From: a virus
UHGV virus genome: UHGV-0208172
Strand: one strand, 5' to 3'
DNA: 45,009 nucleotides
The notes below the pieces were generated by a model, which saw only the letters and a program-made list of their open reading frames with translations, was not told the origin of the DNA and made no database searches. Shown here in pieces: positions 3,428 to 40,465 of the stretch. A program made the position numbers and the translations under genes. Numbering within the stretch: the first letter of the stretch is position 1; every line of letters begins with the position of its first letter.

Positions 3428-3439
3428 AGAGGACTCTAT

Positions 3440-5530
3440 ATGTCAAGCGGATGCGGTGACGTTTTAAGCCTGGCGGATTTACAGACCGCCAAGAAACACC
3501 AAATATTTGAAGCTGAGGTTATCACCGGTAAATCCGGTGGGGTTGCTACGGGTGCTGATATTGATTACGCAACAAATCAGGTTACGGGGCAGACGCAGAA
3601 GACCCTCCCTGCCGTGTTGCGTGATGCGGGTTTTTCTCCGGTGTCGTGGGACTTTTCTACCGGTGGCACTCTCACGGCTAACGACCGCGACAAAGTGGTG
3701 TATGACCCCGTAAGTAAAACATGGTATTCGTACGCAGGTACGTTACCAGTTGTTGTACCCGCTGGTTTTAATCCGGTAGGTAACGCTAACTGGAAACCGC
3801 AGACGGACCCCGATTTGCGTAACGAGCTTACCGCATACGATGGGACCACGGTTGACCAGATTGCCCATCGAGTTACGACAATAAAGTCATTTGAAGAGTT
3901 TGGCGCCATTGGCGACGGGGTAACTGATGATACCTCAGCGATGCTGGCGGCATTGTCGTGGTTGGAGGGGGTGCCGTTTGGTAAATTAACAGGGCGAGTT
4001 GGGGCTAAATACCGCATACAACAGAGCCTGGTAATGAAGTTCGACGGCTCTTATACACAGGAGGTTACCTCTACAAGGTATATTGATTTCACCGGAACAA
4101 CAATCGTAGCAGGAGCTTCTGGCATCACATGCTTAAGAATGAGCCATGATTTCTGCCACATCATAAATCCAGTAGTAATTAACCCAGACAACTACTCTGA
4201 CGTTATCGCCTACGCTATCGCGCCAGAAGACGAATCTCAGACTACCGTACGCGTATCACAGCAATTCTGTGTAATGGAGAATCCACGCGCAAGGGGAACC
4301 AAAATTGGTCTTAAGTTTAAACCAGGGCCTACAGTCGGTGGGAGTAATAGCGGTGCGTATTACCACTCAATTATGAACCCAAACTTTGAGCGAGTAGACT
4401 GCGGGTTTTATTTCGAACGTAGTGTAAGCGGAGATAATAATAACACCCGCATTCATATATACGACCCGCACCATGCAACTGGGAACTGTAGCTTCTGGAT
4501 TGAAAGTACAGATAGCCTTCGTGTATTCGGTGGGCACTCAGAAAATATTACACAAGGCACTTGGCCCGCAGACGTGCCTTGTGCAGTGCGTGTTGTTAAG
4601 ACGGTGAACAGTGACACCCAAGTTGCCGGTAACTTGCGATTCTATGGTTACTTTGGCGAATTATGCACTCGTGGGTATCAGATAGATGATAACGTTGGTA
4701 CGTATAACAATTTCTTTGATTGGAGTTGGGTATTCTTAGACCAAACCCCGACACGTGCAGTAGATAAACCTTTTGAATCATTAGCAGAATTCGATGGTGT
4801 ACTTGTCTCTAGTAACTGGGATTCAACCCAGAAGAATATTGCTGGTTGTCGTAGAAGAGAATCTGGTAAACAGGCAGTAATCATACAGAACGATGATACT
4901 TTACCAGCGGAATTATACTCAGACACGAAGTGGAAATTCACATCATCTGTGCTGGAAGCTCCTGTTCAGGATGTAAGGAATAATAACAGTGGTATTCAGA
5001 TTATTGGGGCTACTGACGCAGGGGTTTTAATAACCACAACTCCAGGAACTAAAGGAATAACCCTGTCCAGTTATGATGGCAAAACATCATCTGGAAACCC
5101 AAATGGCGACTTCACCATCACCGGGTATAATGGGTTCCTTCCTGGTGCGGATAACTCTACAGTGCTGGGGTATACAGGCCACAGGTGGAGCGCAGTGTAC
5201 GCTGCGTCCGGGACTATAGTTACATCTGACGAAACGTACAAGACATTCACTACCCCATCCGACGACGAGGCTGCGCGCGAAGCAAACGCAGCAAAAGAAA
5301 TACGTTGCTCACTTCGTAGGTATAAGTTTAACGAGTCTGTCGCTGCTAAAGGTTTCGAATCGGCACGCACACACTTCGGGGTAGGTGCGCAGACAGTGGA
5401 GTCTATTCTGATGTCCAATGGGTTGAACCCTGATAATTATGCGTTTCTGTGCAAGGATGAACTGGATGGTCGGTTTGTGTATTCAATACGGTATGAAGAA
5501 TTATTGGTTTTCCTCATGATGTATTCATAA
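3440..5530 (+). CDS. tailspike / tail fibre with right-handed beta-helix depolymerase domain (pectate-lyase superfamily-like)
   Basis: 696 aa; RBS AAGAGGA upstream; motif FGAIGDGVTDDT typical of pectate-lyase-fold phage depolymerases; last gene of tail module; possible C-terminal chaperone-like domain. Confidence 0.8.
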   Translation: MSSGCGDVLSLADLQTAKKHQIFEAEVITGKSGGVATGADIDYATNQVTGQTQKTLPAVLRDAGFSPVSWDFSTGGTLTANDRDKVVYDPVSKTWYSYAGTLPVVVPAGFNPVGNANWKPQTDPDLRNELTAYDGTTVDQIAHRVTTIKSFEEFGAIGDGVTDDTSAMLAALSWLEGVPFGKLTGRVGAKYRIQQSLVMKFDGSYTQEVTSTRYIDFTGTTIVAGASGITCLRMSHDFCHIINPVVINPDNYSDVIAYAIAPEDESQTTVRVSQQFCVMENPRARGTKIGLKFKPGPTVGGSNSGAYYHSIMNPNFERVDCGFYFERSVSGDNNNTRIHIYDPHHATGNCSFWIESTDSLRVFGGHSENITQGTWPADVPCAVRVVKTVNSDTQVAGNLRFYGYFGELCTRGYQIDDNVGTYNNFFDWSWVFLDQTPTRAVDKPFESLAEFDGVLVSSNWDSTQKNIAGCRRRESGKQAVIIQNDDTLPAELYSDTKWKFTSSVLEAPVQDVRNNNSGIQIIGATDAGVLITTTPGTKGITLSSYDGKTSSGNPNGDFTITGYNGFLPGADNSTVLGYTGHRWSAVYAASGTIVTSDETYKTFTTPSDDEAAREANAAKEIRCSLRRYKFNESVAAKGFESARTHFGVGAQTVESILMSNGLNPDNYAFLCKDELDGRFVYSIRYEELLVFLMMYS

Positions 5531-8167: not shown

Positions 8168-8452
8168 TTAACTATAATAGTTTGCTATTAGGTCGTCAAC
8201 CTGTTTAAACGACCCGACGACAAAAACATTTGCACCGCGTTTACGCATCCGCTCGTGCTCACGTAACTGGTGCGGGTCTGGCTTCGTGTTTTCGTCTTTC
8301 TTCACCTCGACGAACCAGACGATGCCGCCGGGGAGAATTACCAGCAGGTCAGGTGCGCCGGAACGTCCTTCGTAGGAAAGTTTACGAACGAGACCCCCCA
8401 GGGCCTCGAATCGCTCCTTTGCATATTTCTGTACGCGCCCTTCCGGGGTCAT
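8168..8452 (-). CDS. VRR-NUC domain nuclease
   Basis: 94 aa; PD-(D/E)XK-type signature GAPDLLVILPGGIVWFVEVKK. Confidence 0.75.
   Translation of the reverse strand: MTPEGRVQKYAKERFEALGGLVRKLSYEGRSGAPDLLVILPGGIVWFVEVKKDENTKPDPHQLREHERMRKRGANVFVVGSFKQVDDLIANYYS
8171..8199 (-). promoter_or_regulatory. sigma70-like promoter (class B: TTGACG-N17-TATAGT) embedded in the 3' end of the VRR-NUC gene
   Basis: Read on - strand: TTGACG ACCTAATAGCAAACTAT TATAGT; same architecture as promoters at 11967 and 14705. Confidence 0.5.
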
Positions 8453-8815: not shown

Positions 8816-11075
8816 AACGGTACACCTCTTCCCCGGCCCATGTTAGTGGGAATCCTTCGGCCCATTCAGGTAATGAGCATAGCAGATCACCCATCTCTTT
8901 AACCGTGTACTCCGGTGTGTCTGGTGTTTCGGCGACACATTCGTCATGTACGTGAAGTACAATTGGGTATCCCGCTGCCTCGACCGTCAGGAGTCCGTTA
9001 ACCAGTAAATCACGGCACAACGCTTGAATAATGTTTTCACACAATTTCCCGCCGTGGGTGTACAAAGTTGTCCACTGGCGGGTAGTCTGATTTTCGCCCT
9101 GGTACTTAATGCGAACGTTAGTTGTTACGCGCCCATCCTCGTCAGTTTCTTTAGTCACGCTTAAGCCTATGCCAGGGTAGGACATGATGCGCCCGGACGG
9201 CAACTCCACGCATAGCCACCAACCTGGCACAAAGTTACCCTGTCTGTCTTTCTCTTTAGTACGCCAGATGCGAATGGCCCTATCACCGTTGAGGCGGACT
9301 CTGGCCCCCGCCCAAAACTCTCGCCCCGGATTTCTGATTGCTGCAATTACCGAATCCTTAAGGTCGTTCCAGAATTTTACTGTTTCCGGATGAGCCTCCC
9401 GCCACATGCGCTTGATAGCATCGCAAGTGCGCCAGACTTCTTTAGGCAGCACATAAGAGGCCCGTTCATCTTTTTTACCGGGTTTCGGTGGTCGCTTAGC
9501 CTCCTGGATCCGCGCCCATTCATAACCTCGGGCAGTGGCGGCCCATATATGGTCAGGGAATGTTCCCCGCATTGTCTCCGTCATTTTAAAGAGGTCCAGA
9601 CCGTAAGTTTTAGCCATAGTCATGAAGGCCCCTACGCCCCCCTCGTAGCCAAGGCCGAGTTCGCAACATTTCCCGACCTGTCGCAGGTCCTTACGGGTGG
9701 CTTTCAGTTCTACAGGGTCCATACCAAACATCTTGCCCGCAGTGGCGCAGTAAATATCAATCCCCGCGCGGAACGTCTCAAGGGCAGACGTCTCCCCCGC
9801 CGTCCAGGCTAACCCACGCCCTTCCACGTTTGAGTAGTCGGCAACGAGCAACTTATTGCTTTTTTTCGGGATGATGCAACTGCGGACGGTTGAGGCCGTT
9901 AGTTTAGATACATCAAAACGGCGATGCGCTCGGCCCTTTAAAAGCAAATTGATGCCAAACGATAGCTGGTGCAGCCTGCGGTGCCACTCTTCGTCGGTCT
10001 CCCACTCAAAACGGACAAGCCCACCTTCGTTTTTAGGGTCGTCATGGTAGTACCCGCGCGACAGGTTCTGTGGTTGGAACGCTTTACCCGCAAATCGTAA
10101 AGTGCGCTTTGCCCCGCCGTACTGGATGCACCCACGTCGTCGTCCATCTTTGGACAGTCCTAGCAGGAGCGGTTTATATTTTGTCGACGCCGTGGAGGCT
10201 GCGCCGAGGCGCATCTCAATGATTGTACGCGCATCGTCGGGCAAGTCGTCGTCCTCTAATAAACCTTCGAGCGTTGCTTTCTGCGCATTATAAATATTGT
10301 AGGCCGGTGCCAGTTCCCGAAGGATTGGCAGGAAATCTTTGCCCGTTAGCTTCCCGCCGAACTTCGCGCGGGCCTCGTTTTTTAGCTCTTGCTTGTGGCG
10401 TTCAACCGCCGCTACCGCCGCCTCAGCAAGAGCCGTGTCAACAAAGAAGCCTCGGTCGTTGATTAGCTGGTCCAGCTCCAGTACACGGTCTTCGAATTCT
10501 GAGTTACCCCAACGCGGCAGCTTATGGAACACTTCACGCATCGCAGTGATGTCGCTCACGGCGTACTTGATAAACAAAGCCCACTCGTCCGGGTGCGTCT
10601 CAGCGGTGTAACGGCGGATTTTGTAGTTCTTCGGCGTGGGCTTAGAGAAACGCTTAATCAGCGCCTTGCCGCGTTTATCTTTCGCGTTGTCCGCGGACAC
10701 GCCCAGCACTTCGCACAACGCATCGAGCGACCCCGGCAGCGCGTGACGGAACGCCCAAATCATCGTATCAATGGTGTTACTTACCGGAATATCGAAACCC
10801 CAGCAGTGCTTCATGATGAGCCTGTCGAACATTGAACCATTGTGCCATACCATCTTGATGCGGCTGTTGGGCTTAACAAGGCGGCGTAGCGCGCGGTGCA
10901 AATCGCCTGGCATGTCGCTGCCGTCGGTGCAATCCCATACCTGCACAGGCTCGTCGTCAAAAGCATAGGTACAGATGAGCACTTCGGTTGACGGGTGTTC
11001 GGCGTAAGCGTAGGAACCGACTTTCTTCAAATCGGCTTCGGAGAATGTTTCAAAGTCCAGGTATAAGTAGCTCAT
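8805..11075 (-). CDS. family A DNA polymerase with 3'-5' exonuclease domain
   Basis: Exo I LDFETFS; pol motif A DYSNVEGR, motif B RQVGKCCELGLGYEGG, motif C HVHDE; likely start ATG at 11075 with RBS AAGGAAAAAG (track start 11129 is TTG). Confidence 0.9.
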   Translation of the reverse strand: MSYLYLDFETFSEADLKKVGSYAYAEHPSTEVLICTYAFDDEPVQVWDCTDGSDMPGDLHRALRRLVKPNSRIKMVWHNGSMFDRLIMKHCWGFDIPVSNTIDTMIWAFRHALPGSLDALCEVLGVSADNAKDKRGKALIKRFSKPTPKNYKIRRYTAETHPDEWALFIKYAVSDITAMREVFHKLPRWGNSEFEDRVLELDQLINDRGFFVDTALAEAAVAAVERHKQELKNEARAKFGGKLTGKDFLPILRELAPAYNIYNAQKATLEGLLEDDDLPDDARTIIEMRLGAASTASTKYKPLLLGLSKDGRRRGCIQYGGAKRTLRFAGKAFQPQNLSRGYYHDDPKNEGGLVRFEWETDEEWHRRLHQLSFGINLLLKGRAHRRFDVSKLTASTVRSCIIPKKSNKLLVADYSNVEGRGLAWTAGETSALETFRAGIDIYCATAGKMFGMDPVELKATRKDLRQVGKCCELGLGYEGGVGAFMTMAKTYGLDLFKMTETMRGTFPDHIWAATARGYEWARIQEAKRPPKPGKKDERASYVLPKEVWRTCDAIKRMWREAHPETVKFWNDLKDSVIAAIRNPGREFWAGARVRLNGDRAIRIWRTKEKDRQGNFVPGWWLCVELPSGRIMSYPGIGLSVTKETDEDGRVTTNVRIKYQGENQTTRQWTTLYTHGGKLCENIIQALCRDLLVNGLLTVEAAGYPIVLHVHDECVAETPDTPEYTVKEMGDLLCSLPEWAEGFPLTWAGEEVYRYAK

Positions 11076-18331: not shown

Positions 18332-18360
18332 TTGCACACCCCAACATAATAGGATACTAT
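18332..18360 (+). promoter_or_regulatory. sigma70-like early promoter (class A: TTGCAC-N17-TACTAT) with conserved leader
   Basis: TTGCAC ACCCCAACATAATAGGA TACTAT TCACTTACCGAAACGAGA...GAGGAG; near-identical copies at 19738, 30714-30742 (-) and 40437-40465 (-). Confidence 0.6.
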
Positions 18361-18385
18361 TCACTTACCGAAACGAGACAGAGGA

Positions 18386-19431: not shown

Positions 19432-19556
19432 CAGGTCAATAGGTTACTATTTGGCTTTGTGACTTACGCTGCTACACAGCAGCGTATCATTTTTCTCATT
19501 TTTGTTCTATTTCACCAAACGCAACAATCGAAGCGACTATTGCAGGAGATGCAACA

Positions 19557-19737: not shown

Positions 19738-19766
19738 TTGCACACTGGGATAGAATAGACTACTAT
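19738..19766 (+). promoter_or_regulatory. sigma70-like early promoter (class A: TTGCAC-N17-TACTAT)
   Basis: TTGCAC ACTGGGATAGAATAGAC TACTAT TCATTTACACGAACGAGAGGAG. Confidence 0.55.
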
Positions 19767-19797
19767 TCATTTACACGAACGAGAGGAGAGGCTGAAG

Positions 19798-26835: not shown

Positions 26836-28317
26836 ATGTTAACTATGAACGGTCAGAATCAGGGTGTTAAGACAAAACACCGGGAATGGCTGCATCACTT
26901 CGATAAATGGCAGAAGGTACGCCACGCGCTGGAAGGCGACCTTATTCACTATCTCCGTAACGTCGGGAAGAACGAGCCTGACCCGACCTACGCGGCACAG
27001 CGACAGGAAGAATACGAGAACGGCGCTATCTGCTACAACTTCACTAAACGTACCCTGGCTGGGATGGTGGGGTCAGTGATGCGCAAAGACCCTGAGCAGA
27101 TTATCCCGCCTGAGCTTGAGTACCTGTTACGCAATGCCGACGGTTCCGGTGTCGGACTGTGGCAGCACGCGCAGGATACGCTAATGGAGATTGACTCGGT
27201 AGGCCGTGGTGGGTTGCTGGTGGACGCGCCGGAGACTGCTGCGGCAACGGCAGCCGAACAGAACGCGGGATTATTAAACCCGGTCATCGCATTCTACACC
27301 GCAGAGAACATCATCAACTGGCGACTGACACGCATCGGTTCTGTTAACCGGGTGACGATGGTCGTGTTGCGCGAGGTGTGGGAATACTCGGAACCGGGCG
27401 CGGAGTTCGAAACAAAGTTCGGTGAGCAATACCGCGTTCTCGATTTGATTGACGGGCGCTACCGCCAGCGTATTTACCGCTTCGATGCCGAAGGTGGCGC
27501 TCAGGGTGAAGTAAAAGAAATCTTCCCGGAACTTGGCGGACAGTTACGCGGCAAAATCCCGTTCACGTTCATCGGGGCGAGCAACAACGATGCCACCATT
27601 GACGACGCACCTTTGCTACCGTTAGCTGAGCTTAATATCGGGCATTTCCGCAACAGCGCCGATAATGAGGAATCCAGCTTCGTCGTGGGCCAGCCCACTC
27701 TGTTCATCGCCCCTGGTGAGAATATGAGCACGGAACAGTGGACCGAAGCCAACCCTCACGGCGTGCGCATGGGGTCGCGTTCAGGCCACAACATTGGCTA
27801 CGGCGGTAATGCGTTTCTGGTTCAGGCCGGAGAGAACAATCTCGCCAAGCAGAACATGCTGGATAAAGAGAATCAGGCCATTCAGATTGGTGCGCAGCTT
27901 ATTACCCCGACGCAGCAAATCACTGCAGAATCGGCCCGTCTGCAACGTGGCGCTGATACGTCTGTTATGGCGACAATCGCGCGTAATGTAAGCATGGCGT
28001 ATACCGATGCGTTGCGCTGGGTAGCCGCGATGCTAGGGCTGCGTGAAGGCACAGAGATTGAGTTCAAGCTGAATATGGAGTTCTTCCTGCAGCCGATGAC
28101 CGCTCAGGACCGTGCACAGTGGATGGCGGATATTAACGCGGGCCTACTACCAGCTACCGCTTATTATGCTGCGTTGCGTAAGGCGGGGGTAACCGACTGG
28201 ACCGACGAGGACATTCAGAACGCTATTGAGGATGCGCCGCTGCCGTTGGGTGCTGCTACTCCGGTAGCGGGGGAGATTCCGCAGTCGGCGCAGCAACAAG
28301 ACACCGCCCAGCAGTAA
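26836..28317 (+). CDS. portal protein
   Basis: 493-aa ORF immediately after TerL with RBS AAGAGGA; position and size typical. Confidence 0.75.
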   Translation: MLTMNGQNQGVKTKHREWLHHFDKWQKVRHALEGDLIHYLRNVGKNEPDPTYAAQRQEEYENGAICYNFTKRTLAGMVGSVMRKDPEQIIPPELEYLLRNADGSGVGLWQHAQDTLMEIDSVGRGGLLVDAPETAAATAAEQNAGLLNPVIAFYTAENIINWRLTRIGSVNRVTMVVLREVWEYSEPGAEFETKFGEQYRVLDLIDGRYRQRIYRFDAEGGAQGEVKEIFPELGGQLRGKIPFTFIGASNNDATIDDAPLLPLAELNIGHFRNSADNEESSFVVGQPTLFIAPGENMSTEQWTEANPHGVRMGSRSGHNIGYGGNAFLVQAGENNLAKQNMLDKENQAIQIGAQLITPTQQITAESARLQRGADTSVMATIARNVSMAYTDALRWVAAMLGLREGTEIEFKLNMEFFLQPMTAQDRAQWMADINAGLLPATAYYAALRKAGVTDWTDEDIQNAIEDAPLPLGAATPVAGEIPQSAQQQDTAQQ

Positions 28318-28328
28318 GTTCGCATATA

Positions 28329-28348
28329 GCCCCGAAAGGGGCTTTCTT
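28329..28348 (+). terminator. hairpin attenuator / weak terminator after portal gene
   Basis: AGCCCC-GAAA-GGGGCT followed by TTCTTA. Confidence 0.4.
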
Positions 28349-28353
28349 ATAGT

Positions 28354-29430
28354 ATGCTATTAACTTTAGTGCCACAGGATTTAACTATGAGCTTACTTAC
28401 ATCCCTAATCAGCCACCAGATATGGCTGCAACGCACCGCATCCGGTGAAGTGAAAGACCTTGCGCCGTTTCTTCAGGAAATGCGAGACGAAATCAAACGG
28501 CAGGTGCTGTTATTCGGCGACGACGGTCGCAGCACTGCGCGACTGAATAAATTGTTACGCGACCTGGAAGAAGCACTGAGCGGACTTACAGGCGACTGGC
28601 AAACAAAGCTGACAGAAGACCTTAAAGAACTGGCGGCGTATGAAGCGGAGTGGAATGTAAAAACGCTGACGGCTAACGTAGACGCGGAATTTGTTACGCC
28701 CACTGCTGAACAGGTGTGGGCCGCTGCCGAGTTTCAACCATTATCGTTAGGTGACAAGCCAGTCGACTTCACTAAGCTGATGGCAGGCTGGGGTGAAACA
28801 GAAGTCGCGCGCCTTGTAACCGGTGTTAAGATGGGTTTCGTTCAAGGCCTGACAACGCGGCAGATTGTTAAGAATGTCGTAGGCGCTGGCGGGCTGGCGG
28901 ACATCTCTGAGCGTAACGCAGCTACTGTAATCCGCACCGCGCTGTCCCATGTATCTAACGAAGCACGCAACGAGACGTACCGCCAGAACGACGACATCAT
29001 CGAGAAATATGAATGGGTGTCAACGCTGGACAGCCGTACCAGTACGATTTGCAGAGCCAAGGACGGTATGAAGTGGGAAATTGGTAAGGGGCCGATGCCC
29101 CCCGCCCATCCGAACTGTCGAAGTACCACTGCACCCGTAATCAGTTCGGAGTTCGACTTCCTGGATAAAGGCGCAAAACGCGCGGCTAAGGGCGCAGACG
29201 GCGGTACTCAGGTAAGCGCGGACACCACCTATTACGAGTTCCTGAAACAACAACCGGCATGGTTTCAGGATGAAGCACTCGGGCCAACCCGCGGTAAGAT
29301 TTTCCGCAACAGCGGTATATCGCCAGAAGAGTTTCGCGTAATATCTGTAGATGGTTTCGGGAATCCGCTCACGCTTAAGCAGATGGCGGAACTCGATAAA
29401 CGTGTTGCTGATTATCTGAAAGGGGATTAA
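28354..29430 (+). CDS. head morphogenesis protein (Mu F / SPP1 gp7-like by position)
   Basis: 358-aa ORF following portal; alternative start ATG 28387. Confidence 0.6.
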   Translation: MLLTLVPQDLTMSLLTSLISHQIWLQRTASGEVKDLAPFLQEMRDEIKRQVLLFGDDGRSTARLNKLLRDLEEALSGLTGDWQTKLTEDLKELAAYEAEWNVKTLTANVDAEFVTPTAEQVWAAAEFQPLSLGDKPVDFTKLMAGWGETEVARLVTGVKMGFVQGLTTRQIVKNVVGAGGLADISERNAATVIRTALSHVSNEARNETYRQNDDIIEKYEWVSTLDSRTSTICRAKDGMKWEIGKGPMPPAHPNCRSTTAPVISSEFDFLDKGAKRAAKGADGGTQVSADTTYYEFLKQQPAWFQDEALGPTRGKIFRNSGISPEEFRVISVDGFGNPLTLKQMAELDKRVADYLKGD

Positions 29431-29891
29431 TGATGGGCTTTTTCAAAGTAACTGATGTGCCGTCGCGTCGTGTAGTCCAGTACGCCCGCGTGTCTGGCTC
29501 CGGTGAGAACGTGGTATTTATTGAGGACGAAAGTGTACTTGGTACACCGGTAGACGACATGCCGTTTGCGGATAAAACCGGTATCGCGCTACCAGCGGCG
29601 GGCATGCTTTACGAGATTCCGTATCTGGCGGACGCTGGCGACGTATACTTCTCTGTGCAACCGAAAGACGCTGAACTGGCAGACGGCAGCGCAACTATCC
29701 CTGTTGAGGTTAAGGCAGGCAAAGCGCCGTATACTCTGACCTGGTACAAAGACGGTAAGGAAGTGGTAAACGCTCCGGAAGAGGCATTGTCTCTGACGGT
29801 TAATGCAGTTGGCGAATACTTCGTTAAAGTCGCCGATGCTGACGGCGTAGAGGCGGTAAGCAAAGCGGCGAAGGTTACTAAGCCAGAATGA
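29430..29891 (+). CDS. Ig-like domain-containing protein (possible capsid decoration)
   Basis: 153 aa; C-terminal YTLTWYKDGKEV...GEYFVKV I-set-like signature. Confidence 0.55.
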   Translation: MMGFFKVTDVPSRRVVQYARVSGSGENVVFIEDESVLGTPVDDMPFADKTGIALPAAGMLYEIPYLADAGDVYFSVQPKDAELADGSATIPVEVKAGKAPYTLTWYKDGKEVVNAPEEALSLTVNAVGEYFVKVADADGVEAVSKAAKVTKPE

Positions 29892-29893
29892 TA

Positions 29894-29916
29894 AAAGGCC
29901 CCATTATGGGGCCTTA
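29894..29916. terminator. bidirectional terminator (AAGGCCCC-ATTAT-GGGGCCTT)
   Basis: Hairpin between convergent + packaging genes and - moron; same family as 5535 and 37986. Confidence 0.6.
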
Positions 29917-30212
29917 ACTTTCCATACTTCCCTTAGCGCTACGAGTTTATGATTACCAATATCCCTTGATATTATTGAATCTGTAAAACCATTGAACCAT
30001 GATTTCATCCAGTCAGACGTTCTGAAATCGGCGTACAGAATATGTATTGTTTGCGGAGTGTCAACGTCGTAATGTTGGCACACATAAACACATCCGCTGG
30101 CGAATATAACAGCTTTAAACGTATCGTAGTCTTCTGAATCCGGGAACTCGCTGGAGTCCCCAACAAGATACCTGTACGCGTATTTTTTAGTAGTCTTCTT
30201 TCTTTTCCGCAT
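29904..30212 (-). CDS. hypothetical protein (102 aa), moron gene
   Basis: Track ORF; last codons lie within terminator hairpin. Confidence 0.45.
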   Translation of the reverse strand: MRKRKKTTKKYAYRYLVGDSSEFPDSEDYDTFKAVIFASGCVYVCQHYDVDTPQTIHILYADFRTSDWMKSWFNGFTDSIISRDIGNHKLVALREVWKVKAP

Positions 30213-30221
30213 AGTACTTTC

Positions 30222-30461
30222 TCAGAAGTGCCTGACGGGTTGTTTAAACTTCCAGTCACAATCTACCTGTTTAATAGCGCCTTTTGCAACAAGGCTGTCT
30301 ATGAAATCCTGGCCCGAATTCGTCTTGTACCACGTATATCTGTTCCCGACTTTTACTCCAGGTAGGCTGTGATACACAACGGCATCAACCACCATAAAAG
30401 AGACACCGATAGCCCCTTTCTCTGCATATAGTTTTTTGCTCACACTGCTCATGTAGCGCAT
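30222..30461 (-). CDS. hypothetical protein (79 aa), moron gene
   Basis: Track ORF in reverse 3-gene operon. Confidence 0.45.
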   Translation of the reverse strand: MRYMSSVSKKLYAEKGAIGVSFMVVDAVVYHSLPGVKVGNRYTWYKTNSGQDFIDSLVAKGAIKQVDCDWKFKQPVRHF

Positions 30462-30493
30462 CTCCCACGTAGATAGTTAGTAAGGTAAAGCCC

Positions 30494-30679
30494 TTAGGCC
30501 TTACGAATTGTATATCCATACCCGAGGTAGCCGTTTTTCTCTTGCATAGCGGAGGCGCGCAACATAGCAGCATTCTCGCCTTTTACTACAGCGACCACAT
30601 AATCCGTAGAGTCTGGGCCGTTTTCCACAACTTCATACGCCTGTACGTTCTTGGTGGTAAGTTCATATGTGTTAGTCAT
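30494..30679 (-). CDS. hypothetical protein (61 aa), moron gene
   Basis: First gene after class A promoter; RBS AAGGAA. Confidence 0.5.
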   Translation of the reverse strand: MTNTYELTTKNVQAYEVVENGPDSTDYVVAVVKGENAAMLRASAMQEKNGYLGYGYTIRKA

Positions 30680-30713
30680 TTCTAAATTCCTTATCTCTCG
30701 TTTCGATAAGTGA

Positions 30714-30742
30714 ATAGTATCCTATTATGTTGGGGTGTGCAA
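30714..30742 (-). promoter_or_regulatory. sigma70-like early promoter (class A: TTGCAC-N17-TACTAT), reverse orientation
   Basis: Read on - strand: TTGCAC ACCCCAACATAATAGGA TACTAT TCACTTATCGAAACGAGAGATAAGGAA...ATG. Confidence 0.6.
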
Positions 30743-30794
30743 ACTATTTGTTTACGTATTCCATATATTCCGCCTAATTGTAAATGTTGGAATA

Positions 30795-30837
30795 AACTAT
30801 TCGAATAGTTGACTTTTCACTGAAAATATGCTAAGCT
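30795..30837 (+). promoter_or_regulatory. putative rightward promoter (TTGACT-N17-TAAGCT) overlapped by perfect 16-bp palindrome AACTATTCGAATAGTT
   Basis: Palindrome 30795-30810 overlaps the -35 hexamer (30809-30814). Confidence 0.45.
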
Positions 30838-31016
30838 CCACCTGAGCTTGTGAAGTATGAACAAGCGACCGCGGCGCGGGCAGGTAACGGAGCGGGACGT
30901 AAGTCCTGAGTGTAGTTACGCTGACGCGTTCGGAAGGGCCATACTCTATTGCTTGTGTAAAAAGTAACTGGTTTACTGAGATTACGCCGTTTCTATGTTT
31001 AAATGATAAGGACTAG

Positions 31017-31039
31017 CGCCCCGCTTTAAGGCGGGGCTT
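31017..31039 (+). terminator. hairpin terminator/attenuator about 25 nt upstream of the spanin start codon
   Basis: GCCCCGC-TTTAAG-GCGGGGC followed by TTT. Confidence 0.45.
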
Positions 31040-31061
31040 TACTTATCGAGAAAGGAGAAAC

Positions 31062-31448
31062 ATGAATCTTAAAGCAACTGTCGTAGCAGGAGCATGTTCC
31101 ATCATCCTGGTCTACGCATACGGCATCTATCAGTACCGCAGCGGCTGGAGTGAAGGTCGGGCGAATCTCGTTTCGCAGCAACAGCAGAAAGCACTGGCCG
31201 AATTAGCTAAGAAAACACAACGGCAGCAGCAGGATGAATCAAAGGCCGCAGCCGCTGACAACGAAGGCAAGACGAAATCAGAGGTAATCACCCGTGAAGT
31301 CGTTAAGTACATTAAAACGCCTGGCCGCAGCGTGTGCGCTTTTGACCCTGAGCGCGTGCAGCTCAAGTCCCGCGCCGTCGCCAACGCCAATTCCATCCCC
31401 GGATACGACGATGATGCAGCCGCCGTGCAAGCTGGCCCCGCCAAGTAG
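31062..31448 (+). CDS. i-spanin (Rz-like inner membrane spanin)
   Basis: 128 aa; N-terminal TM VVAGACSIILVYAYGIY, Gln/Ala-rich coiled-coil; RBS AAGGAG; overlapped by embedded lipoprotein gene. Confidence 0.75.
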   Translation: MNLKATVVAGACSIILVYAYGIYQYRSGWSEGRANLVSQQQQKALAELAKKTQRQQQDESKAAAADNEGKTKSEVITREVVKYIKTPGRSVCAFDPERVQLKSRAVANANSIPGYDDDAAAVQAGPAK

Positions 31449-31557
31449 CGACGCTGACGAGGACTTAGCTATTGACGTTCAGAATGCCGAATGTGTACGG
31501 CAACTGAGACTGAAAGTGTTCATGTTGCAGGATTACGTGAGGAATATTCTGGAATAG
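31294..31557 (+). CDS. o-spanin (Rz1-like outer membrane lipoprotein)
   Basis: 87 aa; lipobox LTLSAC, Pro-rich; overlaps the i-spanin 3' end in another frame and extends beyond it; GTG start with GAGGT RBS. Confidence 0.7.
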   Translation: MKSLSTLKRLAAACALLTLSACSSSPAPSPTPIPSPDTTMMQPPCKLAPPSSDADEDLAIDVQNAECVRQLRLKVFMLQDYVRNILE

Positions 31558-31585
31558 TTGCCTTGCATGTTGGAATAATTTATTC

Positions 31586-32344
31586 TTGACATGTAAATCC
31601 GGGTGGCCCGGGTTCCAACGTCCAGGGGACATACTGACTATGAATCGTTTTTTACGTTATCCGTTCCAGGAAGAAGCTGGGGCAGAAGATAAATCTGGCG
31701 GCGGTGACGCGCCGAAAATGTTCACCGCTGAAGAAGTTCAGGCGCTGATCGAGAAAGAAGTTGCCGGGCTTAAGGCTAACCAGGAAGCGTTGTTGGCGGA
31801 GAAGAAAGAAGCCGCTCGTAAAGCAAAAGAGGCCGAAGAAGAGCGGCAGCGCGCACATCAGGAGGCTTTAAAAGCCGCTGGTAAGATGGACGAGTTCGAA
31901 AAGACGATTCGTAGCCAGTATGACCCGGTGTTAGCTGAGAAAGATGGTCGCATCTCCAGAATGGCAGAGCGCATCCTCGGCAGCGAACGTAAAGCGGTGT
32001 TAGGCTCTTTCGCTGGTGACTTTATTACCCCGGAAGCAGTGGACATCCTCGCACCGTTCGTTAAGACTGAGTTCGACGGCGATGATGTGGTTACTAAGTT
32101 TGTCGGCGCAGACGGTAACGTAATCACGACTGACCCGGAACAGTTCCGCAAATACCTGCGTGAACATAAAGCGTTTTCGCATTTGATTAAAGCAAATGCA
32201 GCTTCCGGCGGCGGGGCTTCCGGTAGCAAAGGCGGCGGGGCCGCACCAGCGTTTAAAGACATGAGTGAAGCAGAGCGTATCGCTCTGTACGAATCGAACC
32301 CTGCCGAATTTGAACGGCAACTTAAAGCCCTGAGGAAAAAATAA
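31586..32344 (+). CDS. capsid scaffolding protein (likely start ATG 31640)
   Basis: Ala/Glu/Lys-rich, coiled-coil character; immediately upstream of major capsid gene. Confidence 0.65.
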   Translation: MTCKSGWPGFQRPGDILTMNRFLRYPFQEEAGAEDKSGGGDAPKMFTAEEVQALIEKEVAGLKANQEALLAEKKEAARKAKEAEEERQRAHQEALKAAGKMDEFEKTIRSQYDPVLAEKDGRISRMAERILGSERKAVLGSFAGDFITPEAVDILAPFVKTEFDGDDVVTKFVGADGNVITTDPEQFRKYLREHKAFSHLIKANAASGGGASGSKGGGAAPAFKDMSEAERIALYESNPAEFERQLKALRKK

Positions 32345-33393
32345 TGGCAATTACTACTATCGGCGACATCGTAACTGGTAAAGAATCGGTCATTCTGTCT
32401 TACATGACAGAGGACCCGGTAGAGAAAACCGCGTTCTTCCAGTCCGGTATCCTTACCCCGACTCCGTACGCCGCTGCTATCGCAAACGGCCCATCCAACA
32501 AAGCTGTTCTGCCGTACTGGAAAGCGATTGATACCTCTATCGAGCCGAACTACTCGAACGATGTATATCAGGACGTCGCTACCCCGCGTAACGTGCAGAC
32601 CGGTGAGATGATGGCGCGCGTAGCGTACCTGAACGAAGGTTTCGGCCAGGCGGACCTGACTGTAGAACTGACCAGCCAGAACCCGCTGCAATCTGTAGCG
32701 TCCCGTCTGGATAACTTCTGGCAGCGTCAGGCACAACGTCGTCTGATTGCCACTACGCTCGGCCTGTACAACGACAACGTTGCCGCGACCGATGCTTACC
32801 ACGAGCAGAATGACATGGTTGTAGACGTGTCTGCTACTCTTGGCTTCGACTCTGGTGCGTTCATCGATGCTACCCAGACTATGGGTGACGCTCTGATTGG
32901 CAACGGAGGTGAAGTGTTGGGTGCTATCGCGATGCACAGCTTCGTTTATGCGCAGGCTCGTAAGCAGCAGCTTATCGACTTCATCCGTGACGCTGACAAC
33001 AACACCATGTTCGCCACCTACCAGGGCTATCGTGTGATTGTTGACGACAGCATGACCGTAGTCGGTACAGGTGGCGACCGTAAGTTCATCTCCATCATCT
33101 TCGGCAACGGCGCTATCGGTTACGGGGAAGGCAACCCGACCAATCCGCTGGCCTATGAGCGCGAAGAGTCTCGCGGTAACGGTGGCGGTGTAGAAACCCT
33201 GTGGACCCGTAAGACTTGGTTGCTGCACCCGTTTGGCTACAGCTTCACCAGCGCGGTAATCACCGGCAACGGCACCGAGACCGTCGCACGCTCTGCTTCC
33301 TGGCAGGACCTGGCGAACGCCTCCAACTGGAACCGCGTTGTTGAGCGTAAGCATGTACCGATTGCCTTCCTGGTAACTGGTGTCGGTGCTTAA
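32344..33393 (+). CDS. major capsid protein
   Basis: 349 aa; RBS GAGGAAAAAA; follows scaffold; followed by hairpin terminator typical of abundant capsid mRNA. Confidence 0.75.
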   Translation: MAITTIGDIVTGKESVILSYMTEDPVEKTAFFQSGILTPTPYAAAIANGPSNKAVLPYWKAIDTSIEPNYSNDVYQDVATPRNVQTGEMMARVAYLNEGFGQADLTVELTSQNPLQSVASRLDNFWQRQAQRRLIATTLGLYNDNVAATDAYHEQNDMVVDVSATLGFDSGAFIDATQTMGDALIGNGGEVLGAIAMHSFVYAQARKQQLIDFIRDADNNTMFATYQGYRVIVDDSMTVVGTGGDRKFISIIFGNGAIGYGEGNPTNPLAYEREESRGNGGGVETLWTRKTWLLHPFGYSFTSAVITGNGTETVARSASWQDLANASNWNRVVERKHVPIAFLVTGVGA

Positions 33394-36809: not shown

Positions 36810-37981
36810 ATATGGCTACAACTCCTTTTAAGGGCGCGAATACCGCGCAATTCTATGTGGCGGAAGTTACCCCGGGCGTAACACCAAGTAACCCGGTATG
36901 GTCGCCGTTGCGTAACACCGGTGGTGTTCCAGCTGTAACTCGCGATGCGCTGACCTCCAACGAACTGGACGGCAGCCGAGAAACCACATCCATCCGAACC
37001 GGTAACAAGCAGGTTAGCGGGGAGTATGCCATCGAACTTAGCTCCCGTAGCCAGGATGATTTCCTCGCGGGCGCGATGACTTCTACGTGGCAGGATGGGG
37101 TAACCTTATCCGCTGTTGGCATTACGGTAGACCCTGTGGCTAAAACCTTTACCCGCGCCACCGGCAGCTTCATTACTGACGGCGTAGAGGTCGGGGACCT
37201 TCTGTATTTTGACGCTTTAACCGGTGATAACTCTAAGCCGTTCATCGTTACCGCAGTAACTGCTACTGTGGTTACGGGTGCAGGTATTCAACACACCCTG
37301 ACCGCCGAAGGTCCTATCGAGACCGACGGTAAAACTGGCGATAAACTGGAAACCAGTAACGCGTGTAAGACGTTCTCCATCCTGACATGGTTCAAAGGGC
37401 AGTGCGGGAACCCGGACGCGTACATGTTGACCAAAGGCGTGGAAATCTCCGGTTTCACCATCGAGCAGGCCGTAAACGCTATGGTAACCGGCAGCTTCCC
37501 GTTCATCGGTCTGAGCCAGGAAATTCTTACCGCGCCGCCGACAGGTTCCGACTTCTCTCAGGTCACATTCACTGATGAGCCGTTCTCGTCGGTTGATGTG
37601 TCTGTGTTCGACGGGTCCACGCCGTTGCGTTGCGATACTCTCACTATCACAAACGACAACGGTGCTTCTGCGCAGTTCGAACTCGGCAACAGTAGCGTTG
37701 CGTTCGTGGAACGTGGTCGCGCGGCTAACACCTTCTCCATCTCTGGTAAGCTGTACGACATGGCGATGATTCAGAAGTTTATCAACGAACAGCAGGTAGA
37801 GATTAACTCTATTCTGGCGGGGGTAAATGGGGCTATGTCTTTTAGTCTGAAACGTGCCGAACTTACGGCGGTTACACCTGAGATTGGCGGCCCTGAGTCA
37901 ATTACTCAGTCCATTGAAGGTCAGGCTACTGGAAACCAGTACCAGTCGTCTATTGTTATCCAGCGTATCGCCTATGCATAA
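36806..37981 (+). CDS. major tail (tube) protein
   Basis: 391 aa; followed by strong bidirectional terminator; position in tail module. Confidence 0.65.
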   Translation: MNMATTPFKGANTAQFYVAEVTPGVTPSNPVWSPLRNTGGVPAVTRDALTSNELDGSRETTSIRTGNKQVSGEYAIELSSRSQDDFLAGAMTSTWQDGVTLSAVGITVDPVAKTFTRATGSFITDGVEVGDLLYFDALTGDNSKPFIVTAVTATVVTGAGIQHTLTAEGPIETDGKTGDKLETSNACKTFSILTWFKGQCGNPDAYMLTKGVEISGFTIEQAVNAMVTGSFPFIGLSQEILTAPPTGSDFSQVTFTDEPFSSVDVSVFDGSTPLRCDTLTITNDNGASAQFELGNSSVAFVERGRAANTFSISGKLYDMAMIQKFINEQQVEINSILAGVNGAMSFSLKRAELTAVTPEIGGPESITQSIEGQATGNQYQSSIVIQRIAYA

Positions 37982-37985
37982 AACT

Positions 37986-38008
37986 AAGGCCCCGTTTGGG
38001 GCCTTTTT
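37986..38008. terminator. bidirectional rho-independent terminator (AAGGCCCC-GTTT-GGGGCCTT + T5)
   Basis: Hairpin plus TTTTT; separates major tail gene from convergent reverse cassette. Confidence 0.7.
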
Positions 38009-38009
38009 C

Positions 38010-38564
38010 TTACAAACCTAATCTTAAAGCAATGCCTATAGCGTTCGATTTAACGTAACCCGGTATGATGTAGGTGTCATAATCTTTTACGCCATCAATA
38101 TCGTACAGGTAACCACGGCTGTCCCCTTCAAACGTATAGCCGTCTCTGTGCAAGCGAACGATTCTCACATCATGCCCCGCGGCAACGATAGGGGCCACTT
38201 CGCTGGCGAATCCACCGTCGGAAACTACAAAAACTTCGTTGCCGCCGGGCAAGTTTTCAGCAAGATACTTACCGAAATAATCACTACCAAGTACCGGTTT
38301 AATGAATTGTTCAGAGATAGCAATCATGAACTGACGTCGCGACAAACCATTAAGGAAGCCTTCCGGCTTTTCTTTCCGCGCTCGGTCGTCGTAGCCGTCG
38401 AGAAATTCGTGGTAAGCATCAGGGCCTAACGCCGCCAGGGCAACATTGAACATTGGATTCTTGAAACTGGCAGTTCCTTTTGCAAAGCCCATTTCTACCA
38501 GTGCCATAGCAAGAGTGTCTTTCCCGCAACCAGCAGGACCATTAAGAATAATTACCTTAGCCAT
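38010..38564 (-). CDS. P-loop nucleotide kinase, dNMP-kinase-like (T4 gp1-like) or polynucleotide 5'-kinase
   Basis: 184 aa; Walker A GPAGCGKDT at N-terminus; overall pattern resembles phage dNMP kinases. Confidence 0.65.
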   Translation of the reverse strand: MAKVIILNGPAGCGKDTLAMALVEMGFAKGTASFKNPMFNVALAALGPDAYHEFLDGYDDRARKEKPEGFLNGLSRRQFMIAISEQFIKPVLGSDYFGKYLAENLPGGNEVFVVSDGGFASEVAPIVAAGHDVRIVRLHRDGYTFEGDSRGYLYDIDGVKDYDTYIIPGYVKSNAIGIALRLGL

Positions 38565-39049
38565 TATTTATCACTCCCGTGCGATTTTAAGTGTGTAGAG
38601 TTCCCGTTACAGTCGTATTCAGTAACCGCGTGAGTGGTTATACCGAGGCCGCGGAAATGCTTTATTACCGCTGGCGAGTCGTCGAACGCACACAAGATTC
38701 TTTCTAGCCCGATCGCACGCAACACCTCTTCTTTAATTACGATGTCTTTTCTGTTGTCGTGTTTGCTGCGCATGATTAGCTGATAAAATTCGACGCGGTG
38801 GCGCTGCAGCCACATTCTGGTTTCTTTTTCTGCATCATCACTACGGCCCGTTAAAATAATAACGGCATAGCGACGATTGAGGGCGTTACACAGTTCGATG
38901 TTATCTCTAATTGGTTCATCATCTTTGCACGCCATGTTAAATGGCTTCCACGCCCACGTTTCGTCGTAGTTATCTTTCGGCAGCAGGTGCAAACGATGTG
39001 TCCCATCCGCCAATGTCCCGTCTAAATCGAAAATTACAATATCTTTCAT
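38564..39049 (-). CDS. HAD-superfamily phosphatase, polynucleotide-kinase 3'-phosphatase-like
   Basis: 161 aa; N-terminal FDLDGTLA motif, ILTGR, KEEV...FDD motif pattern like T4 Pnk phosphatase domain. Confidence 0.7.
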   Translation of the reverse strand: MKDIVIFDLDGTLADGTHRLHLLPKDNYDETWAWKPFNMACKDDEPIRDNIELCNALNRRYAVIILTGRSDDAEKETRMWLQRHRVEFYQLIMRSKHDNRKDIVIKEEVLRAIGLERILCAFDDSPAVIKHFRGLGITTHAVTEYDCNGNSTHLKSHGSDK

Positions 39050-40176
39050 CCCAGCATCTCCGGTGAAATAGTTAAACGTGCGACCTCGCCATATTCGGCG
39101 CTATAAGTAATTACATTTGCGCTACGGCCTGACATCCATCCGCCGCGGGAGGCGTAGGCGTCTTTAGCCGCTAAGGTGCGGTGTTGCTCAACAATCATGT
39201 TACGGCTTTCTACAATCTTCTGGTGGTGGAGATGTCCGACATGTGCGTAGCTGTACTCGCTTTCGCCAAATGCTTTGCGGAACTTAGCTATCATAATGGG
39301 TTCGACCACCTCAAACCGGCATTTATGCCCGTGTGTAAAGAACAGCGTCGTTTTCCCGTGTTGCACCATCTTGTAAACATCCGGCGACGTATCGACGAAC
39401 ACACGAGGCTCATTGCCATACAGTGTACTGAACATCTCAGCCAACCAAATCATTCCGCTTTCGTCGTGGTTCCCTTGCACGATAAGCAAGCGAACATTTT
39501 TATGTTTAACAAGGGCCATATCGACAACACGGCGGACCATACGAATCATGTAGCGGACCAGTTTCTGATAGCGTGTATCCGCATCAAGAACATGACCACT
39601 TGCGGGTGTAACTGCATCCAGGCTATCGAAGTGAGCGAGGTCGCCCAGCAGATTAATAACTCCTGTTCCTGCATCCGGTGCTTTCTGAAACGCTGCATCG
39701 AACCAACGAGAGAACAGGTCTTCTGCAATCTTCATATCCCAGTCGTCGCCGCTCTCGTCGGCCCAGGCCAGCATACCGAGATGGAAATCAGATACCGTGT
39801 AAAGATTAAGTAGCTTGTCGTCGCGTTTTGCTCGAGTCGCTTTAACAGGCGCAACCGGCGTAATCTCTGACTTCATACCTTCAACTACGGCTTTCATCAA
39901 TTCAACCTGACGTTCGGCGTCTGTGTCGGTCTTAACCCATTGCAACTTAGTGTTGCCGAACTCGTCTACCAGTGACGACGTTCCTTTAATCTTGTAGCCG
40001 TCTGGTACGAGGTGGCTAACGTCGCGTCCGTGGCCTACGCCTTTCTTAGCCAGCTTCGCTTTACGGATACGAATAACGCGGTCTGAGATGCCGTATTTAC
40101 GGGCGATGTCGATATTCTTCATCCCGGCGTTCAATTCTTCCTGTAACTGTTCGTCGGTTATTTTCTTCTTGGCCAT
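39046..40176 (-). CDS. calcineurin-like metallophosphoesterase with N-terminal HTH domain
   Basis: 376 aa; HTH NIDIARKYGISDRVIRIRK; phosphoesterase motifs SDFH, GDLAHFD, GNHDE, THGH, GHLHH. Confidence 0.75.
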   Translation of the reverse strand: MAKKKITDEQLQEELNAGMKNIDIARKYGISDRVIRIRKAKLAKKGVGHGRDVSHLVPDGYKIKGTSSLVDEFGNTKLQWVKTDTDAERQVELMKAVVEGMKSEITPVAPVKATRAKRDDKLLNLYTVSDFHLGMLAWADESGDDWDMKIAEDLFSRWFDAAFQKAPDAGTGVINLLGDLAHFDSLDAVTPASGHVLDADTRYQKLVRYMIRMVRRVVDMALVKHKNVRLLIVQGNHDESGMIWLAEMFSTLYGNEPRVFVDTSPDVYKMVQHGKTTLFFTHGHKCRFEVVEPIMIAKFRKAFGESEYSYAHVGHLHHQKIVESRNMIVEQHRTLAAKDAYASRGGWMSGRSANVITYSAEYGEVARLTISPEMLG

Positions 40177-40214
40177 GCTTACGTCCTCGTGTTTAGGATT
40201 TGTCCTATACTAGC

Positions 40215-40421
40215 TTACTTCTCGTTAACATTCGAGTTGCACGCCCAGATTAAAATAAAGACCCACGGCAGCATAGCCCAACCAAGAAACAGGTTAGCCA
40301 TGAATATAGCTAACTTCGCTTTATGGTTACGGAAGTACGCAACCAGGAAAGGCGCGAAATAAGCGAGCAGTGCAAACAGAATTAAGGAAACTGGTAAACT
40401 GGACATTTTAAACCCCTTCAT
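40215..40421 (-). CDS. superinfection-immunity-family small membrane protein (Imm-like)
   Basis: YFAPFLVAYFRNHKAKLAIFMANLFLGWAMLPWVFILIWA matches conserved pattern of this family; likely start ATG 40406 with AAGGGG RBS. Confidence 0.65.
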   Translation of the reverse strand: MKGFKMSSLPVSLILFALLAYFAPFLVAYFRNHKAKLAIFMANLFLGWAMLPWVFILIWACNSNVNEK

Positions 40422-40436
40422 TGTTGGTGTAAGTGA

Positions 40437-40465
40437 ATAGTACCCTATTATATTGGGGTGCGCAA
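40437..40465 (-). promoter_or_regulatory. sigma70-like early promoter (class A variant: TTGCGC-N17-TACTAT), reverse orientation
   Basis: Read on - strand: TTGCGC ACCCCAATATAATAGGG TACTAT TCACTTACACCAACAATG. Confidence 0.55.

Follow-up and report, generated by a model that had tools for sequence, protein, structure and literature searches.

A reverse three-gene cassette in the head-gene block of a Kagunavirus: a probable moron found at two intergenic sites

UHGV virus genome UHGV-0208172, a DNA of 45,009 nucleotides (nt) referred to here as the window, is that of a virulent siphophage of the genus Kagunavirus (Guernseyvirinae). Its rightward head-gene block contains three small open reading frames (ORFs) on the minus strand, termed g61, g76 and g102, which lie at 29904-30679 between the gene for an immunoglobulin (Ig)-like "Hoc-like" decoration protein and a conserved spacer of ~300 base pairs (bp). 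We regard the region as probably a moron, i.e., an autonomous and dispensable accessory operon, mobile, carried in the head-gene block of a virulent Kagunavirus, with products that would modulate the host or its defences.

An alignment of filled and empty sites places the whole cassette at 29892-30756 on the minus strand, where it replaces a hairpin segment of ~36 bp of the empty Hoc|spanin site. In nine loci the Hoc-like and spanin genes are separated by a conserved region of ~345 bp alone, to which the cassette adds ~830 bp, and in other relatives a different reverse cargo is found between the two genes. The empty Hoc|spanin loci read ...GCCCCGAAAGGGGCTTTTTAGTGCCTGTGAT|TATTCCAG, and the window rejoins this common sequence at TATTCCA (30757). 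Thus the gene order of relatives, with the ~345-bp stretch or another cargo in place of the cassette, agrees with the sequence-only reading of the window, which had described a reverse insertion that interrupts a rightward structural module. That reading had also proposed a moron, and this gains support from the presence of the same unit elsewhere, between portal and MuF, in phiWAO78-1, SXAU_B4, phage pink (a Jerseyvirus) and the metagenomic contigs L004-L008, L010 and L026. The cassette is found at Hoc|spanin in the window, L009 and L027. Nucleotides 29895-30748 are 88-90% identical to phiWAO78-1 3390-4232 and SXAU_B4 8881-9732. As judged from these alignments, the whole cassette shifts between the portal|MuF and Hoc|spanin sites and is swapped for unrelated cargos.

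Both sites were surveyed in 39 IMG/VR loci recovered with the Hoc-like protein, together with annotated phages, and were scored for the class II promoter motif described below. Site A (portal|MuF) is empty in 25 loci, where it measures 40 bp and has the motif in 0/25, and filled in 16 loci, where it measures 244-1432 bp and has the motif in 12/16. Site B (Hoc|spanin) is empty in 9 loci (~345 bp, motif in 0/9) and filled in 32 (511-1300 bp, motif in 29/32). The hairpin differs accordingly in type: at both sites the empty form displays GCCCCGAAAGGGGC and the filled form GGCCCC-loop-GGGGCC. When the filled sites of some 50 loci are pooled (n=48), the promoter motif is present in 41 and the hairpin in nearly all. 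Because empty sites are without the motif and have a different hairpin, the promoter and hairpin belong to the cargo and not to the site; the cassette promoter motif travels with cargo and is found at none of the empty sites. The promoter had also been considered as a resident of the Hoc|spanin site, but this was rejected, since 9/9 empty sites are without it. The window has its own empty alternative docking site, the portal|MuF gap at 28318-28353 (no strand assigned), where the hairpin GCCCCGAAAGGGGC is followed by a degenerate motif, TTATAGTATGCTATTAAC, that agrees with the promoter palindrome at 12/16 positions. This gap looks like a terminator-promoter composite left without cargo.

The minus-strand cargo ORFs at the two sites cluster into at least 20 unrelated families, which include an N6/N4 DNA methylase, a KilA-N protein, a Vut_1-type transporter and a CapR/zinc-ribbon protein. 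A 173-aa (amino acid) family is found eight times at site B and once at site A, and the methylase twice at site B and once at site A; a 60-aa family and the g61-g76-g102 cassette are also found at both sites. The largest cargo of site A (1.4 kb; IMG/VR contig L032, 1493-2925) has a Vut_1-type transporter beside a 244-aa protein that has no Pfam match. The latter may resemble DpdA-like transglycosylases, which would suggest a 7-deazaguanine DNA-modification (anti-restriction) cargo.

In a five-way alignment the window corresponds to site A of phiWAO78-1 on the cargo side and to site B on the flank side. The crossover falls within TGAATAGTAyCCTATTATrTTGGGGT, inside a 34-bp core, TGAATAGTAyCCTATTATrTTGGGGTsTGCAAA. 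The left junction of the cassette is at the hairpin, and both the hairpin, which has an A/GTTA loop, and the TTAAC next to it accompany the cassette to the portal|MuF site. Since the breakpoints are in the conserved promoter and at the hairpin, they point to homologous recombination, and exchange of cassettes would proceed between the repeated promoter and hairpin sequences.

The cassette is rare. A 2.2-kb probe around it has matches in 187 phage records, mostly Escherichia and Salmonella Guernseyvirinae, and the best whole-arm matches to the window, BUCT825 and fEg-Eco19, are each just ~90% identical. The cassette itself is present in 3/~240 related phage records and 2/39 IMG/VR loci (~1-5% of relatives), and only two deposited phages, phiWAO78-1 and SXAU_B4, match its DNA over most of the length. 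Presence or absence in related phages had been named as a check on the moron proposal; the genes are found in ~1-5% of relatives and are not conserved structural genes. Absence from >95% of relatives implies that the cassette would be dispensable. The order g61-g76-g102 is kept in at least 12 other phage genomes or contigs, where the copies are from phiWAO78-1, SXAU_B4, seven Logan/ENA contigs and two IMG/VR contigs, and Salmonella phage pink has the cassette without g76. No match to the cassette DNA was found in 5,426 complete Escherichia coli genomes.

The three minus-strand ORFs listed in the sequence-only reading, of 102 aa (29904-30212), 79 aa (30222-30461) and 61 aa (30494-30679), are all present, with one adjustment of a start codon. 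The product of g61 is slightly acidic, with an isoelectric point (pI) of 5.1, and has the motifs EVVENGPDxxDYV and YLGYGYTIR conserved in an alignment of its family; AAGGAA is positioned 8 nt upstream of its ATG. The middle ORF, taken mechanically, extends to 30461 and gives 79 aa, but its start is probably the second ATG at 30452, because most homologues have 76 aa. GGGAG lies 9 nt upstream of that ATG, and the resulting gene, g76 (30222-30452), encodes a basic protein of 76 aa (pI 9.5). The ATG of g102 is preceded by GAGAAAG, a Shine-Dalgarno-like sequence, and the 102-aa product is basic (pI 8.9), with an N-terminus rich in lysine and arginine (K/R), and forms an orphan family. Spacers between the genes are short and operon-like, 32-41 nt and 9 nt. 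No transmembrane segment was detected in any of the three proteins, the top Kyte-Doolittle score over 19 residues being 1.47.

Pairwise Nei-Gojobori ratios of nonsynonymous to synonymous divergence (dN/dS) were computed against the other cassette copies from phage genomes and metagenomic contigs. They are 0.09-0.19 for g61, 0.08-0.12 for g76 and 0.05-0.08 for g102, with synonymous divergence (dS) up to 0.8, and clearly point to purifying selection on all three protein sequences. Because a ribosome binding site (RBS) is found at each ORF, the unit is conserved in order and dN/dS is low, the three can be taken as confirmed genes rather than chance ORFs. For g76, dS is ~0.6-0.8, versus 0.07-0.38 for g61 and g102 in the same genomes (L001, L004, L008-L010), which indicates that the g76 allele of the window is mosaic, with allele replacement within the cassette. 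The G+C content of the three genes is 0.41-0.47 (0.43-0.51 at third codon positions, GC3), whereas in the head genes compared (portal, MuF, Hoc and capsid) it is 0.53-0.56, with a GC3 of 0.54-0.65. This dip relative to the flanking head genes indicates a foreign base composition of the cassette.

It should be noted that where g102 has an A6 tract, at its K-rich 5′ end (window ~30180-30190), phiWAO78-1 has an A8 (L001 ~1780-1800), a +2 frameshift. The change could be a homopolymer sequencing error, an inactivation or a slippage-prone tract. In addition, the tblastn match of SXAU_B4 to g102 begins at residue 11, and its N-terminus may differ too.

The cassette is headed by a predicted class II phage promoter on the minus strand (30714-30742), with the -35 hexamer TTGCAC at 30742-30737, a spacer of 17 nt and the -10 hexamer TACTAT at 30719-30714. 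It is overlapped by the palindrome AATAGGATACTATT (30713-30726), of the AATAG-N4-CTATT type. Comparison of promoter copies predicts a 5′ untranslated region on the minus strand at 30680-30707, with the RBS AAGGAA and a putative transcription start at its upstream end. The sequence 30707-30742 is repeated in the window at 92-100% identity, with copies at 18.3 kb and 40.4 kb (40430-40465, 92%), and the first ~20 nt of the cassette leader (CACTTAyCGAAACGAGA) are common to the leader of the 18.3-kb copy. A 25-nt promoter core occurs 3 times in the window versus 0.00 expected, and the palindrome AATAG-N4-CTATT 8 times versus 0.04 expected (at 8176, 11972, 14710, 18348, 19438, 19754, 30713 and 40436).

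Alignment of the eight copies separates two classes of promoter. Class I, gTTGACA-N17-TATAGT, is present in 3 copies that face the leftward replication genes, namely those for a family A DNA polymerase, an AAA_25-domain protein, likely the replicative helicase, and a PD-(D/E)XK nuclease. Class II, TTGCAC-N17-TACTAT followed by the leader CACTTAyCGAAACGAGA, is present in 4 copies. Apart from that of the cassette, these are at 18332-18361 on the plus strand, at the head of a rightward arm of small genes without assigned function; at 19738-19767 on the plus strand (TTGCAC ... AATAGACTACTATT), in the same kind of rightward small-gene setting; and at 40436-40465 on the minus strand, heading a second reverse cassette (38010-40405). 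In class I promoters the palindrome falls within the spacer, and in class II promoters it covers the -10; the copy at 19438 shows neither an obvious -35 nor an obvious -10. This placement suggests that the palindrome may be an operator for a dimeric regulator acting on most transcription units of the phage.

The second reverse cassette (37973-40465, minus strand) is within the tail-gene block and has, besides its class II promoter, a GGCCCC hairpin at 37988. Its genes are a small hydrophobic-looking ORF, a 376-aa metallophosphoesterase, a HAD/PNKP-type phosphatase and a deoxynucleoside monophosphate kinase.

At its other end the g61-g76-g102 cassette has a predicted GC-rich hairpin terminator on the minus strand (29895-29915, AAGGCCCCATAATGGGGCCTT then TTATCATT), one of 3 GGCCCC hairpins in the window, which lies 3 nt past the stop codon of the Hoc-like gene. 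The terminator had been described as bidirectional. A terminator scan called the hairpin, AAGGCCCCATTATGGGGCCTT, as an intrinsic terminator on the minus strand only, and that part of the description stands. On the plus strand the bases after the stem are AACTTTCC, a poor T-run, and no terminator was called, so the second direction is not borne out. A scan of 29400-31700 against Rfam gave no family.

Taken together in a proposed mechanism, host sigma-70 RNA polymerase would start at the class II promoter, near 30707, and transcription would run leftward through g61, g76 and g102, opposing the structural genes. The transcript would then stop directly beside the Hoc-like gene, at the GGCCCC hairpin (29915-29895). 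Because the rightward small-gene arm and the nucleotide-metabolism cassette have the same promoter at their head, the operon would most likely be expressed with early or middle genes and not with virion genes. As the weakest step, we propose with low confidence, and by analogy, that the three small soluble cytoplasmic proteins bind host or defence proteins stoichiometrically, for host takeover or counter-defence. A benefit in some hosts only would explain the patchy prevalence of 1-5%. Circumstantially in line with a modulator role are the DNA methylases and other such cargos at the hot spots, and the relatives of g61 in early accessory regions elsewhere.

Scans of g61, g76 and g102 with Pfam, NCBIfam and PADLOC gave nothing usable, PADLOC matching none of them at E <= 1; the earlier statement that they have no recognisable domains is upheld for these three collections. 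In PHROGs the sole match is that of g61 to phrog_16707 (E = 7.7e-14), an uncharacterised family. Sequence searches of the Protein Data Bank (PDB) with single sequences and with family profiles of the cassette proteins returned noise only. Among these, a C-terminal stretch of RNase III for the g61 profile (E = 0.07) was dismissed, as it is not significant and the topology is unlike that of the double-stranded RNA-binding domain. The AlphaFold2 model of g61 is confident (pLDDT 84) and folds as helix-β-β-α-β, with a loop of 5 residues between the first two strands. A Foldseek search of this model against the PDB found nothing below E = 1, and a BFVD fold search found uncharacterised phage proteins only. 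For g102 the model from an alignment of 5 sequences has a pLDDT of 39 and shows no usable fold. Thus the remote-homology and structure check proposed earlier yielded a confident model of g61, but no functional match for it and no reliable model of g102. Nothing specific on g61, g76 or g102 was found in the literature.

The three genes are distributed differently outside the cassette. For g61 there are 48 homologue clusters. The range of phrog_16707 covers Drexlerviridae, Guernseyvirinae, Pantoea phage PdC23, T4-like Aeromonas phages and Serratia lambdoid prophages, and g61 homologues are also found in Cronobacter and Klebsiella siphophages. In the Serratia prophages the homologue immediately follows cI in the early-left operon; in PdC23 it is in an Erf-containing operon; and in Klebsiella phage VLCpiS13e it is within a reverse insert adjoining the large terminase gene. 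Relatives of g76, at 32-36% identity, are found in small-gene clusters of Drexlerviridae. For g102 there are just 3 close clusters among 5.8 billion proteins, and four phage records, with no match among PLSDB plasmids. An exhaustive HMMER search of 1.84 billion representatives gave one distant relative, P0061 (136 aa, 34% identical), whose contig context is uninformative; the other HMMER matches are long repetitive proteins and were dismissed as repeat artefacts. By these distributions the three genes have independent histories and are separable.

Several points weigh against the moron reading or against parts of it. Functional homology was found for none of the three proteins in Pfam, PHROGs, NCBIfam, PADLOC, PDB sequences and folds, or BFVD, and the role as binder or modulator is argued solely from size, context and analogy. 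The cassette promoter is predicted by its likeness to a consensus, which the hexamers TTGCAC and TACTAT match at just 3/6 and 4/6 positions, and a generic sigma-70 scan did not pick it up. We infer the "early" timing of the cassette from promoter sharing alone; the rightward arm with the class II promoter also leads to an endolysin at 22.3 kb, and promoter class alone cannot fix timing. Recombination at the promoter and hairpin is likewise deduced from the position of the breakpoints.

Other explanations can be set against the same observations. A selfish or competitive module, either an addiction set of toxin-antitoxin type or a system for phage-versus-phage exclusion, kept because it promotes its own spread or shuts out co-infecting phages, would suit a compact three-gene operon with one acidic protein (pI 5.1) and two basic ones (pI 9.5 and 8.9), conserved as a unit and mobile between sites, all the more as neighbouring hot-spot cargos include small proteins of lipoprotein or membrane type, typical of exclusion functions. 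However, no PADLOC match and no match to a toxin-antitoxin family of Pfam was found, none of the three proteins has a membrane segment, and the genes are separable, with phage pink lacking g76 and with g61 and g76 each found alone in other phage groups. We consider such a module rather unlikely. Less likely still is that g102 is a small DNA-binding or nuclease mobility protein, similar to a free-standing homing endonuclease, which actively carries the cassette from one intergenic site to another, with g61 and g76 as its passengers. The two different intergenic sites of the cassette in closely related genomes would fit this, as would the K/R-rich N-terminus of g102 and the Cys, His, Asp and Arg that it shares with its only distant relative; reverse, promoter-bearing inserts that separate conserved genes are also typical of homing endonuclease genes. 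But no HNH, GIY-YIG, LAGLIDADG or other nuclease profile matches g102 at E <= 0.1, no PDB match was found, and a typical homing endonuclease is longer than its 102 aa. Moreover, unrelated cargos without g102 are likewise found at both sites and bounded by the same promoter and hairpin, which makes a mobility function encoded in the cassette unnecessary.

The position of the cassette inside the morphogenesis block, among portal, MuF, decoration, scaffold and capsid genes, could be taken to mean that the three are head-assembly or virion accessory proteins, and small proteins can serve as assembly chaperones. This is very improbable, given that the genes are missing from >95% of phages with near-identical head genes, lie on the opposite strand with a promoter common to non-structural genes, have homologues elsewhere in early or accessory regions and not in head modules, and are interchangeable with methylases and similar cargos. 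They are also unlike virion and assembly genes of Guernseyvirinae in being rare, reversed and variable in position. We find it just as hard to credit that the ORFs are decaying or non-functional passengers and that only the promoter and terminator DNA matters. The +2 change in the A-tract of g102 in phiWAO78-1, the SXAU_B4 match that covers g102 from residue 11 only and the loss of g76 from phage pink would agree with decay; dN/dS of 0.05-0.19 for all three genes at dS up to 0.8, reading frames intact in at least 9 independent contigs and conserved RBSs do not. The reading as a mobile accessory operon of moron type is therefore the one preferred here.

The local gene order in the window is, on the plus strand, portal (26836-28317), MuF-like head morphogenesis protein (28354-29430) and Hoc-like decoration protein (29430-29891); then the reverse cassette and the ~300-bp conserved spacer; and 3′ of the spacer, again on the plus strand, the i-spanin and o-spanin genes (31062-31557), scaffold (31586-32344) and major capsid protein (32344-33393). 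Between the cassette and the i-spanin gene (30809-31048, plus strand), just upstream of the spanin RBS, is a unit of ~200 nt bracketed by a sigma-70-like promoter, TTGACT-17-TAAGCT (30809-30837), and a strong intrinsic terminator (31018-31037). The unit keeps 97% identity over 26 distinct Kagunavirus loci and is better conserved than the genes on either side. A 36-aa ORF annotated in the unit (30857-30967) is broken or frameshifted in ~8/35 unique loci. The predicted RNA fold has z = -2.26, and RNAalifold gives 73 pairs, of which 4 have compensatory changes, mostly from one divergent locus; a search against Rfam gave no match for the unit. It may be a structured leader or a small RNA, and its layout is reminiscent of the λ PR'-6S-tR' unit or of put-like antitermination elements.

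Kagunaviruses are widely collected for phage therapy against pathogenic E. coli. Apart from receptor binding, what determines their host range is probably small accessory genes of this kind. The three ORFs, genuine, selected, mobile and rare, together with two docking sites, offer a defined place to seek functions in counter-defence or takeover that are specific to a host. For payload engineering, a natural and tolerated locus is marked by the boundaries at the promoter and hairpin.

Among known systems, g61 can be compared with ClpS, the N-degron adaptor of ClpAP, and with the family to which it belongs, phrog_16707, every member of which is uncharacterised. Where the g61 model has its 5-residue loop, ClpS has two helices that build the N-degron pocket, and these are missing from the model. 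The ClpS profile gave no Pfam match for g61 at E <= 0.1, and hhalign of the g61 family profile against an E. coli ClpS sequence entered by hand gave a probability of 0.1%. PaaB, MzrA, T4 Dmd and T7 Gp2 are neighbours of g61 at a Z similar to that of the ClpS-like ones, and β-β-α-β is a very common small fold. In the model, then, the resemblance to ClpS is at the level of the fold, appears weak and does not suggest family membership.

Morons were reportedly defined by Hendrix and Juhala in lambdoid and other tailed phages. A moron consists of one or more extra genes with their own promoter and terminator, placed between genes that are adjacent in relatives, deviating in composition and dispensable. 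At the sequence level the cassette has the placement and the deviating composition of a moron, with a predicted terminator and a putative promoter, and its absence from most relatives implies that it would be dispensable. However, the classical definition comes from temperate phages, whose morons are often expressed by the prophage, whereas the present one is in a virulent siphophage and its promoter is common to the phage's own, probably early, genes. The cassette is a well-known kind of object, as are hyperplastic regions. New are the three uncharacterised protein families and, as far as the literature found goes, what appear to be docking sites in the structural operon of a Kagunavirus that exchange promoter- and hairpin-bounded cargos in the fashion of PeSL (promoter-early stem-loop) cassettes.

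The promoter motif itself has been described before, though only as a promoter. In the Kagunavirus fBC-Eco01 it was reported as a PHIRE "phage promoter" in seven copies, with the consensus tgAATAGTa-ccTATTat-T, and was credited to a phage-encoded RNA polymerase; no link to cassette exchange was drawn (PMC9825357). The published consensus is the palindrome core of the cassette promoter. Unlike that attribution, the flanking hexamers in the window (TTGCAC/TACTAT or TTGACA/TATAGT, 17 nt apart) fit host sigma-70, and no RNA polymerase gene was noticed in the window, without a systematic search for one.

A further parallel is with the PeSL cassettes of T4-type phages, mobile regulatory cassettes in which non-essential ORFans lie between a repeated sigma-70-like promoter and a stem-loop terminator, and for which exchange by recombination between the repeated motifs has been proposed and partly demonstrated (PMC2839356; PMC4122927). 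A repeated composite of sigma-70-like promoter and stem-loop flanking non-essential ORFs is found here too, and the cassette breakpoints between close relatives coincide with the promoter and hairpin motifs. The differences are that the carrier is a Guernseyvirinae siphophage, that the motif is an AATAG-N4-CTATT promoter with a GGCCCC hairpin, and that 2-3 discrete sites inside a structural operon take the place of large hyperplastic regions; in addition, the PeSL type is marked by excised mini-circles and by experimentally verified promoters and terminators, and the comparison made here is one of DNA sequence. It is conceivable, though doubtful, that Guernseyvirinae possess a PeSL- or integron-like exchange system, new to this group as far as the literature found goes, with 2-3 fixed sites in the structural operon, each of them either empty, with a hairpin only, or loaded with one of dozens of promoter-cargo-terminator units. 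In it g61-g76-g102 would be a new counter-defence or host-takeover module of three protein families without a characterised relative, and g61 might be a minimal ClpS-like decoy that disturbs host proteolysis or a defence sensor. The cassette provides a clean, testable example, and with it PeSL-type exchange would be extended from T4-like myoviruses to a subfamily of siphoviruses.

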